Sequence record: PQ510734.1
DNA length: 64,000 bases
Origin: Escherichia phage A6-6
Direction: 5' to 3' (one strand)
This document shows, in pieces, positions 51,156-52,954 of this stretch. A program made the translations under genes and the position numbers. Below the pieces are notes generated by a model that was not told the DNA's origin, did not search any database, and saw only the letters and a program-made list of their open reading frames with translations. Within the stretch, counting starts at the first letter, position 1, and every line of letters starts with the position of its first letter.

Positions 51156-51764
51156 ATGAAAATGCAAAGTGATTTCAATTCAATGTTTGAAGAGTTCCAA
51201 AGACAGGTTGATGTTCCAGACCAATTACTAAATGCTCTTAAACGTATGGCAGAAGGACGTAATTATTATTGGGGTTCTTCATATGAAACTGATGAAAGTC
51301 TTTCTGGAAGATTTTCCAGAGGTAAAAAGTCTTTAATACGTCCTGGAATACTTATTAACAGTATTGAATCAATTCATTTATTGACGTGTGATTTTGATGT
51401 TGAATTTACTGATTTTGTTTCTCCTGAATGGACAGTATGTTATTTAAACGACGATTATGATTATCTCGGCATTTATAGTTTAAGTGACGCATGGTTTAAA
51501 CGTAATTTACAAAAGTCAAATTTATTCTATATTGATACTACGGTAAAATTTCAGGGAAAGAAATATTTCTTTACTCTTATAGTTGACTCTGAAACAAAAT
51601 ATGAAAATAAGCGTATTCTTAGTAAAAAGAATATCTTAACTATTGTTGATGATCTTTTTGATAAATTCGTAGAAAATCCCAATTTTGAAAGCGATTTATT
51701 ACTAGAAAAATTTGTGAAGGAATGCAGAGAATATGTCAAAGCCATCAATGTATCTTCCAAGTAA
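51156..51764 (+). CDS. hypothetical protein, first member of the C-terminal F-x-x-E-C-R family
   Basis: 202 aa; C-terminus EKFVKECREYVKA. Confidence 0.65.
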   Translation: MKMQSDFNSMFEEFQRQVDVPDQLLNALKRMAEGRNYYWGSSYETDESLSGRFSRGKKSLIRPGILINSIESIHLLTCDFDVEFTDFVSPEWTVCYLNDDYDYLGIYSLSDAWFKRNLQKSNLFYIDTTVKFQGKKYFFTLIVDSETKYENKRILSKKNILTIVDDLFDKFVENPNFESDLLLEKFVKECREYVKAINVSSK

Positions 51765-52125
51765 ACCCTTAAAGTATGAATTAAAGCGCCAGCTAATTTC
51801 TACTGATGTATTAATAGGTCCTGTTATACTCATATCATTTGTAATTCTATTGATTATTGGAGGTGTTTTAGATGTTATGACTGATATTGATTCTGGCGAA
51901 ATACTTGTGTTAATGCTAATTCTTCCATTAATAGTTCCACTTTTATTAGTACCCGTAAATTGGGTAGGATACTGGTATCAAGGAAGACATTATCGTAAAC
52001 GCGTACGTGATTGGAAAGCACAGTGTAAAAAGATTAAAAAGGAACATCAGCTTAAACTTGCTGCGTATGAATTTGATGAAATTATGAAATTTGTTAAGGA
52101 ATCACGATGCAAAAGCCAAAACTAA
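51733..52125 (+). CDS. small membrane protein paralog
   Basis: 130 aa; two predicted TM helices; C-terminus EIMKFVKESRCKSQN. Confidence 0.65.
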   Translation: MSKPSMYLPSKPLKYELKRQLISTDVLIGPVILISFVILLIIGGVLDVMTDIDSGEILVLMLILPLIVPLLLVPVNWVGYWYQGRHYRKRVRDWKAQCKKIKKEHQLKLAAYEFDEIMKFVKESRCKSQN

Positions 52126-52469
52126 ATAAAGTCAAATATTCGCTTCCTGAGTCATTTTTAATTTTTGCTGTGGCGTTGGCTGCAGCTCTTGCGGGTAGTC
52201 TTTTTGGATTGTTAATTGACTGTCTTATTTTAAACATTGACGGAACAGTAAATATAATAGAAGTTTGGAGTGAACTTCACTATACTAAAATTATTTCATT
52301 ATTTTCATTCTTTGGTACTATGTTATATTTTCATTATGATAATTTTAAAATAAATTGGCAAAGAAAAAAAGATTACAAAATACAATTAAAGGAATATAAT
52401 AACTACATGTCTTATATTGAAAAAGAATCAATGGAAGAGTTTGTGAGTGATTGTAGGAAAATTAAATGA
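52107..52469 (+). CDS. small membrane protein paralog
   Basis: 120 aa; TM helices; C-terminus EEFVSDCRKIK. Confidence 0.65.
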   Translation: MQKPKLNKVKYSLPESFLIFAVALAAALAGSLFGLLIDCLILNIDGTVNIIEVWSELHYTKIISLFSFFGTMLYFHYDNFKINWQRKKDYKIQLKEYNNYMSYIEKESMEEFVSDCRKIK

Positions 52470-52954
52470 TTTTAAAAACTCGCTGGTATGATTTAGATGA
52501 TGGGGACGATGGCATTTCAGTTGATAGAGTTGACTGGAGCGGCTGTTCTGAAGATACAAAGAAACGATTAATTAGGGAGTTTAGAATGGGATATCAAGCA
52601 GTTAAGCCATCTACTGTAACAGATGATAAATTCGTGTGTATTCAAAATGGTCGTGCTAAGTTAACGAACGCTGATTGGTTCACAGATAAGAAGGTTATTC
52701 TGTGGTATATTATTAGTTTTCCTGTGACATCATTTGTATTTTGCTTCTTTGGAGAAAGTCCAGTAGGCAGAACGGAAGATTGGATTCTTTTAATTATACT
52801 TGTTAATATTTTTACAGCAGCAGTACTATCAGGAATATGGTGCGTGTTCATTGAAATGCCATGGCGGCTACGCAGACAACAAAAGATTTTTGATGAAAAG
52901 AAATATACTCAAAATTTAAATAACTTTATCACTGAATGCAGGAAATTAAAATGA
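52466..52954 (+). CDS. small membrane protein paralog
   Basis: 162 aa; TM helices; C-terminus NNFITECRKLK. Confidence 0.65.
   Translation: MILKTRWYDLDDGDDGISVDRVDWSGCSEDTKKRLIREFRMGYQAVKPSTVTDDKFVCIQNGRAKLTNADWFTDKKVILWYIISFPVTSFVFCFFGESPVGRTEDWILLIILVNIFTAAVLSGIWCVFIEMPWRLRRQQKIFDEKKYTQNLNNFITECRKLK

Follow-up and report, generated by a model that had tools for sequence, protein, structure and literature searches.

Why should four consecutive genes of a T4-like phage, one for a soluble protein and three for small membrane proteins, end in nearly the same peptide? The question is raised by a 64,000-nucleotide (nt) stretch of Escherichia phage A6-6 (PQ510734.1), which was analysed at its full length and is called the window hereafter. 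The source is a Tequatrovirus, and positions 50500-53950 share 96-97% identity with many T4-like coliphages and Shigella phages. Four + strand open reading frames (ORFs) in this segment, the orthologs of T4 e.5, e.4, e.3 and e.2 (msp4-msp7 in the original L13089 entry), have FVKECREY, FVKESRCK, FVSDCRKI and FITECRKL, respectively, as their last residues. A first-pass annotation of the window had taken them for four paralogs of a duplicated, diversifying family. Our results show instead that the common unit is a C-terminal amphipathic helix of ~12 residues, φ-[ED]-x-F-[IV]-x-x-C-R-[KRG], and not whole-protein paralogy.

The first-pass annotation was right about the layout of the locus. The four genes are genuine, conserved and translationally coupled; e.6 lies upstream of the block, and nudE, then e, follow directly downstream. 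The e.5 gene (51156..51764, +) encodes 202 amino acids (aa), e.4 (51733..52125, +) 130, e.3 (52107..52469, +) 120 and e.2 (52466..52954, +) 162, and nudE, the gene of a Nudix hydrolase (52951..53391, +), is translationally coupled to e.2. Along e.5-e.4-e.3-e.2-nudE the overlaps are 32, 19, 4 and 4 nt in turn, the last two being ATGA sequences that join the e.3 stop to the e.2 start and the e.2 stop to the nudE start at 52951. The motif codons lie, all on the + strand, at 51711..51728 in e.5 (F186-V-K-E-C190-R191), 52090..52107 in e.4 (F-V-K-E-S-R, with Ser for Cys), 52440..52457 in e.3 (F-V-S-D-C-R) and 52925..52942 in e.2 (F-I-T-E-C-R). Shown at greater length, the tails are ...EKFVKECREYVKAINVSSK in e.5, ...MKFVKESRCKSQN in e.4, ...EEFVSDCRKIK in e.3 and ...NNFITECRKLK in e.2. 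Start codons have been assigned differently at two places. The e.5 gene has two in-frame ATGs 6 nt apart, at 51156 and 51162, with an AGGA that abuts the first and stands 6 nt ahead of the second; RefSeq starts the gene at the former, for 202 aa, and L13089 at the latter, for 200 aa. The longest nudE ORF opens at an ATG within the E-C codons of e.2 (52936), which is the RefSeq T4 annotation, and the ATG at 52951, chosen in L13089, has an AGGA 7 nt upstream.

The tail is rare elsewhere and confined to one side of one gene. In the six-frame translation of the 64 kb, F[IV]x[ED]CR occurs three times, each time at a C-terminus of this array. When the whole T4 genome was searched for [FW][IVL]xxC[RK] in the last 20 aa, the matches were e.5, e.3 and the remnant of e.2, with 0.2 expected. 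The search was extended to 45 T4-like loci anchored on e.6 and taken from GenBank phages and IMG/VR. In these, the last 25 residues contained [FW][IVL]xxC[RK] in 132 of 1159 ORFs, compared to 3 occurrences in 114,529 internal residues, and 132 of 543 ORFs on the downstream side of e.6 ended in the motif, as against 0 of 495 on its upstream side, counts that are not independent of one another, the sampled phages being related. The carriers fall into at least 21 BLAST-distinct families (9 soluble, 12 two-transmembrane), nearly all with the motif in every member, and are spread over at least 10 genera (Mosig-, Dhaka-, Gapriver-, Kanagawa-, Marfa-, Jiaoda-, Moon-, Karam-, Ishiguro- and Biquartavirus). 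A genome has from 1 to ~7 motif-bearing genes; Pseudotevenvirus and POP12 have kept only the e.5-like member. A DNA-pattern scan of IMG/VR outside T4-like genomes returned chance-level matches only, and the motif was set aside as a general phage feature. The T4 gp59 helicase loader (NC_000866 148543-149196) ends in ...NVFIETVKSCKY, which fits the relaxed motif only and probably does so by chance.

A family-weighted logo of the tails reads φ at -3, E/D at -2, F at 0, I/V at +1, C at +4 and R at +5, followed by K/R/G; positions 0, +1, +4 and +5 are the criteria by which the instances were picked. On a helical wheel the hydrophobic positions fall within one 120° arc. The first ORF after e.6 was e.5-like and carried the motif in 40 of 44 loci, from at least 12 genera, the exceptions being split genes. 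Profile comparison by hhalign joined e.5 to three other families (fam24, fam96 and fam39) over 139-164 columns, and in a 15-sequence alignment of this superfamily (11-47% identity) the only invariant columns were F186 and C190. In an AlphaFold2 model of e.5 (pLDDT 76, pTM 0.74), a soluble α/β protein with ~6 helices and 9 strands, the motif is placed within a confidently predicted terminal helix, residues 181-196.

The bodies that carry the tail differ. Transmembrane (TM) segments are predicted in e.4, e.2 and e.3, in keeping with the hydrophobic helices that had been noted in the 130-, 120- and 162-aa ORFs, and none in e.5. Hydropathy and charge place the two TM segments of e.4 at 31-49 and 57-75 and show an acidic loop and a tail in which 15 of 55 residues are K/R; an N-in/C-in topology in the inner membrane is predicted. 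The small membrane protein e.3 has a TM segment at 19-37 and a weaker hydrophobic stretch at ~62-77. In e.2, a soluble N-terminal domain of ~75 aa precedes TM segments at 77-95 and 106-124 (hydropathy) and a basic tail. The tails of all three are predicted to be cytoplasmic because of the positive-inside rule. The helix is thus placed in two ways: a soluble α/β domain ends with it in e.5, and in e.4, e.3 and e.2 it closes the basic segment that follows a predicted two-TM hairpin. A domain architecture common to all four does not exist.

Similarity beyond the tail was found for a single pair. In pairwise BLASTP among the four proteins the only match was the last 14 aa of e.3 against e.2. More sensitive comparisons were made by hhalign with family alignments built from the 45 loci, with and without the motif region. 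The e.3 and e.4 families matched with 93% probability (P 2.4e-7) over 57 columns, from TM2 to the end, and at 55% (P 1.2e-4) after the motif region was removed. The match between e.2 and e.3 (92%) fell to 1.4% without the motif and that between e.2 and e.4 (25%) to 1.2%; e.5 matched the membrane families at 21-38% over 10-12 columns and at 0.1% without the motif. As a control, 32 non-motif families reached a maximum of 4.2%, except for fam13, which proved to be a further two-TM family with a degenerate tail (SWIKEMK, NFIQGIRGER). We conclude that e.3 and e.4 are probably remote paralogs, that e.2 shares only the two-TM-plus-tail architecture with them and has an extra N-terminal domain of its own, and that e.5 is outside this group, with ~10 residues in common. 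Of the duplicated family that had been proposed, the e.3/e.4 pair survives, and e.5 does not belong to it.

Databases assigned no function to these bodies. No functional family was matched by e.5, e.4, e.3 or e.2 in Pfam, NCBIfam or PHROGs. The last of these places them in four separate families, three labelled as of unknown function, and the fourth, phrog_2203 (e.2), a generic "membrane protein" in the category "moron, auxiliary metabolic gene and host takeover". Relatives of e.5 carry the precomputed entry PF26876. A homolog search with the 15-sequence e.5 superfamily alignment recovered only close relatives and POP12, and an e.5 profile search of protein representatives gave 6 matches and no fusions, so that there is no Rosetta-stone link to e.6. 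Several GenBank records (e.g. OL964745, locus L074, 2078-2814) label e.4 and e.3 "sulfurtransferase". We found this label unsupported: neither protein matched a rhodanese or sulfurtransferase domain in Pfam or NCBIfam, both are two-TM hairpins, and the name is probably a propagated mislabel.

The conservation of the tail is conservation of amino acids. Over 132 distinct DNA contexts, the motif F was encoded by TTT (93) or TTC (32) and the C by TGT (58) or TGC (55), and the motif Arg by AGA (48), CGT (33), AGG (16), CGA (12), CGC (9) and CGG (3). More than one codon was in use at the Cys position in 12 of 21 families. This free choice of synonymous codons at the three residues shows that the core F, I/V, C and R are under selection in the protein.

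All four genes have been kept across hundreds of phage records (502 at ≥80% identity for e.5, 497 for e.4, 493 for e.3 and 444 for e.2), and e.2 is missing from ~10% of Tequatrovirus records. The e.2 gene is intact here and disrupted in the T4 reference (NC_000866 67472-67960 vs window 52466-52954), where -1 and +1 indels ~120 nt apart truncate it to 102 aa. The T4 annotation gives e.2 102 aa and, after them, a 160-nt "gap", and the C-terminal FITECRKLK is back in frame; the gene is either a pseudogene or the product of two sequencing errors. At another locus, from an IMG/VR T4-like genome (L018, 7594-7956), e.2 has been precisely deleted within the motif DNA. The left flank of the crossover matches e.3 at 56 of 60 nt and the right flank matches the e.2/nudE junction at 60 of 60, and the product is an e.3 body with an e.2 tail joined to the nudE junction. 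The motif DNA has therefore served as microhomology for unequal recombination that altered the gene content.

The slot occupied by e.2 holds other genes in Mosig-, Dhaka-, Gapriver-, Kanagawa-, Marfa-, Moon- and Karamvirus, namely a tandem array coding for 2-6 small acidic proteins of 65-100 aa (L003 3357-4151, L004 3216-4255, L005-L008, L011 and L012). These proteins end in W-[VI]-S-S-S-x-x-C or ...PSSC and are a second family of paralogs that share a Cys motif at the C-terminus; their genes are interleaved with F-I-x-x-C-R genes, and Pfam gave nothing convincing for them. In many genera a conserved protein of ~318 aa with domains DUF7277 and DUF7275 is encoded after the small-gene arrays (L003 4482-5438, with orthologs in L004-L008, L011 and L012). 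Its start, MLVIGSRAL...SDWDFIAD, may by eye resemble a nucleotidyltransferase G-S...D-x-D.

Since unrelated bodies bear the same terminal peptide, a common binding site is implied. The reading we favour, with a probability of roughly 40%, is that the shared tail is a common docking or assembly helix that ties variable membrane anchors and a soluble partner to e.6. Such a helix would give a changing set of accessory proteins access to a single partner, for which the e.6 product would be the most likely candidate; its gene always adjoins the block, and the protein is predicted to be PspA/Vipp1-like. In such an arrangement the part of membrane anchors, played in cells by PspB, PspC and LiaI, would fall to e.4, e.3 and e.2, and that of the older soluble partner to e.5; e.6 and the tail-bearing proteins together would make up a phage-encoded Psp-like module at the inner membrane. 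A more ambitious form of the proposal, which we regard as unlikely, is that T4-like phages encode a Psp/ESCRT-III-like inner-membrane system of their own. In it e.6 would be recruited or regulated via the F-[IV]-x-x-C-R helix, displayed both by the ancient e.5 superfamily and by quickly shuffled two-TM anchors (e.4, e.3, e.2 and at least 10 more families), and the gene junction would be a docking tag, a translational coupler and a recombination site at once.

The case for e.6 is made of several lines, each weak alone, that converge. The gene heads the block (50521..51114, +; 197 aa) and is called "host specificity protein" in many records. An AlphaFold2 model (pLDDT 77) has helices at 3-22, 25-80, 86-145, 151-160, 166-176 and 186-196, which is the PspA/Vipp1 architecture of an N-terminal α0 helix, a long hairpin and short C-terminal helices. 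When the model was compared with the PDB by Foldseek, the best 8 matches were all Vipp1 (probability 0.99-1.0, E 7e-3 to 3e-2), and several archaeal CdvB2 chains stood lower in the list. A profile search of the PDB aligned e.6 collinearly with cyanobacterial Vipp1 over residues 1-146 at E 0.09. Among 34 e.6 homologs the commonest Pfam match was PspA_IM30 (PF04012), in 10 of 34 with a best E of 7e-5, and one homolog was named "phage shock protein A" by JGI. Taken together, sequence and model suggest that e.6 is likely to have a PspA-like fold, a helical protein of the ESCRT-III superfamily. In the one Slopekvirus locus inspected, 24 kb around nudE held neither e.6 nor tail-bearing ORFs, which is consistent with the co-occurrence of the two.

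Several points weigh against the docking proposal. What connects the tails to e.6 is gene order, and synteny and co-occurrence are not independent because all of these phages are related. By sequence, the PspA assignment of e.6 is sub-threshold: the window protein itself had no Pfam match at E≤1, and the profile E of 0.09 and the Foldseek E of ~7e-3 are those given above. A motif hidden Markov model (HMM) detected no complementary or similar element in e.6; the e.6 C-terminus (…EYINSLK), considered as a copy of the motif, ranked 93rd or lower among the non-family matches and is not supported as such. In e.4-type families the Cys is replaced by S, V, M or I, so that it is not universally required. 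Finally, the e.5 fold offered no functional match, with nothing convincing in the PDB and only uncharacterised T4-like proteins in BFVD, and its helix may be no more than an element of the domain core.

The docking proposal has precedents of two kinds. Short docking motifs on unrelated proteins are familiar from the clamp-binding C-terminal peptides of T4 gp43, gp33 and gp55, from the MIM motifs that bind MIT domains and from the CdvA E3B peptide that binds CdvB. The e.5-e.2 tails resemble them in being terminal amphipathic peptides conserved on unrelated bodies. They differ in the F-[IV]-x-x-C-R consensus and in that the carriers are limited to one gene block in one phage lineage.

The second precedent is cellular. 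PspA and LiaH are recruited to the membrane by small membrane proteins, PspB and PspC in E. coli and LiaI in B. subtilis (PMC7619361). Like e.4, e.3 and e.2, these are small integral membrane proteins encoded beside a co-oriented PspA-family gene (PMC7619361, PMC11237479), with cytoplasmic segments that presumably touch the PspA-like protein; e.4, e.3 and e.2 follow e.6 after e.5. The phage proteins had no match to PspB, PspC or LiaI-LiaF-TM domains in Pfam or NCBIfam at E≤1. The putative phage system also differs in being phage-encoded and in combining several anchors and a soluble protein that bear one tail motif. PspA-PspAA dyads, in which a small α/β partner domain is encoded beside pspA, occur in bacteria and archaea (PMC11237479). 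The e.6-e.5 pair of 40 of the 44 loci is likewise a PspA-like gene followed by a soluble α/β gene, but e.5 is larger than PspAA, with its ~6 helices and 9 strands, and no PDB similarity was detected. That broad survey of cellular PSP (phage shock protein) systems makes no mention of viruses (PMC11237479). In the literature we searched, with coverage that was incomplete and is not proof of absence, neither the shared tail nor a PspA-like nature of e.6 was described, and there was nothing usable on e.2-e.6.

Among the alternatives, two survive best, both of them improbable. In the first, the motif is a vestige of common descent and junction recombination: tandem duplication or swapping of 3' ends would have spread what is now the slowest-evolving segment, which would have a structural role in each protein and no shared partner. 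The remote paralogy of e.3 and e.4 fits this account, as do the many two-TM families that hhalign links via TM2 and the tail, and the crossover in L018 made exactly such a hybrid tail from motif DNA. Proteins at the e.5 position with different bodies (fam4 and fam24) also share ECREY and the embedded start of the next gene. Descent has more difficulty with the same residues on soluble α/β proteins and membrane hairpins that otherwise show no detectable similarity. It must also account for the motif as the sole invariant feature of the e.5 superfamily across very deep divergence, and, given saturated synonymous change, this is more than drift or hitch-hiking would keep.

PeSL mobile regulatory cassettes mediate modular shuffling in T4-type hyperplastic regions (PMC2839356, PMC4122927), and the motif junction resembles them as a short conserved gene-boundary sequence that can act as a recombination point for small accessory genes, as in the L018 deletion. 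PeSL are intergenic and consist of a promoter and a stem-loop; the e.5-e.2 junction, in contrast, is coding, overlaps two genes and is conserved as amino acids.

In the second alternative, which we judge about as doubtful, the tails bind each other. In a hetero-oligomer of the e.5, e.4, e.3 and e.2 products, the C-terminal helices would make a bundle at the cytoplasmic face of the membrane, whose clustered Cys residues may be metal-binding or redox-active. The narrow hydrophobic stripe of the tails is typical of helix-helix packing, and translational coupling is consistent with co-assembly. Each tail has one Cys, which in e.4 comes two residues later (ESRCK, EIRCK) in the Tequatrovirus and Mosigvirus sequences checked (window, T4 and PhAPEC2). 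Against such a bundle, the number of motif genes per genome ranges from 1 to ~7, Pseudotevenvirus and POP12 retain the e.5-like member only, and several e.4-type families have no Cys at all.

The function proposed in the first-pass annotation, that of diversifying membrane proteins for superinfection exclusion or defence evasion, is less probable still. T4 Imm and Sp are small early proteins of the membrane or periplasm, dispensable in the laboratory, and e.4, e.3 and e.2 are likewise small T4 membrane proteins of the early region, located within a hyperplastic region of variable gene content from which e.2 is sometimes absent. The genes also evolve faster than their neighbours. Ratios of nonsynonymous to synonymous change (dN/dS) against T4 were 0.21 for e.5, 0.39 for e.4 and 0.23 for e.3, compared to 0.13 for nudE and 0.06 for e, and e.6 had 0 nonsynonymous and 19 synonymous differences. 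However, because these ratios are 0.21-0.39, selection on e.5, e.4 and e.3 is purifying, if somewhat relaxed, and not diversifying; the comparison with T4 gave no evidence for positive selection at these genes. There was no similarity to Imm, Sp or defence families in Pfam, PHROGs or NCBIfam, and the conserved element is predicted to be cytoplasmic, not periplasmic. Exclusion or evasion would also leave the motif unexplained, and is compatible with a docking tag.

That the motif is a by-product of translation initiation, its codons kept as Shine-Dalgarno (SD) sequence and spacer for the overlapping downstream gene, is very improbable. The motif does lie just upstream of the next start, as had been noted: the next ATG follows the R codon at a median of 5 nt, and 82 of 123 starts lie at 0-15 nt. 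In the window, AGGA or AAGGA stands 6-11 nt ahead of each start. The e.4 ATG (51733) is 4 nt beyond the e.5 motif, and position 52107, the last of the e.4 motif, is the first base of the e.3 ATG. The variable positions are rich in AAG/AAA and GAA, and the tail in AGA/AGG AAA. The K-E codons supply AAGGAA in e.5 and e.4, and the R-K codons AGGAAA in e.3 and e.2, as the SD of e.2 and nudE, respectively. The place of the SD within the motif thus differs between the pair e.5/e.4 and the pair e.3/e.2. The most conserved residues, F (TTY) and C (TGY), are not SD-like, every synonymous codon is in use (CGN for Arg in 57 of 132), and in four families (32, 51, 95 and 143) the motif persists although the closest start is 38-77 nt away or there is none in the vicinity. 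Initiation as the sole cause of the motif is therefore largely refuted. The earlier suggestion that conservation is at the protein level, at the level of the translation initiation region or both is settled as both, with the protein dominant: the variable positions and the basic tail also accommodate the SD and start of the next gene, a second, weaker constraint.

Least credible is a C-terminal counterpart of the capsid-targeting sequence (CTS) or gp21 protease site of T4 (I-x-E, MKTYQEFIAE), for although two internal proteins of the window (54011-54328 and 54345-54818) start with MKTYKEFIAES and MKTYQEFITEA, which resemble FIAE/FITE of the motif, and such leaders gave the best of the weak off-family motif HMM scores, these scores are not significant (E 0.45-4.8), E occurs at +3 in only ~40% of families, the CTS lacks C and R and is located at the N-terminus, the motif at the C-terminus, and integral membrane proteins are implausible as capsid cargo.

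The gap between e.6 and e.5 contains an AGGGGC-UUCG-GCCCCU tetraloop hairpin (51120..51135, +), annotated as a stem-loop in L13089. It has no clear T-run on the + strand and may be an attenuator or an RNA-stability element. After it, at 51143-51146, lies GGAG, the recognition sequence of the T4 RegB nuclease. No strong promoter was predicted in this gap, and Rfam had no match in 49000-54500.

The ORFs themselves, docking motifs and PspA-partner arrangements are already known; what would be new is the phage-encoded form, with its three-way overlap at the junction. About 20 nt of gene junction have three overlapping roles, as protein motif, as ribosome-binding site and as recombination microhomology, which is relevant to the evolution of phage accessory-gene arrays. 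If the docking tail is real, ~20 orphan families of the e-tRNA hyperplastic region would become one testable system with e.6 as its candidate hub. A phage homolog of PspA, if e.6 is one, would bear on the way membrane potential and integrity are kept up in T4 infection and lysis inhibition.

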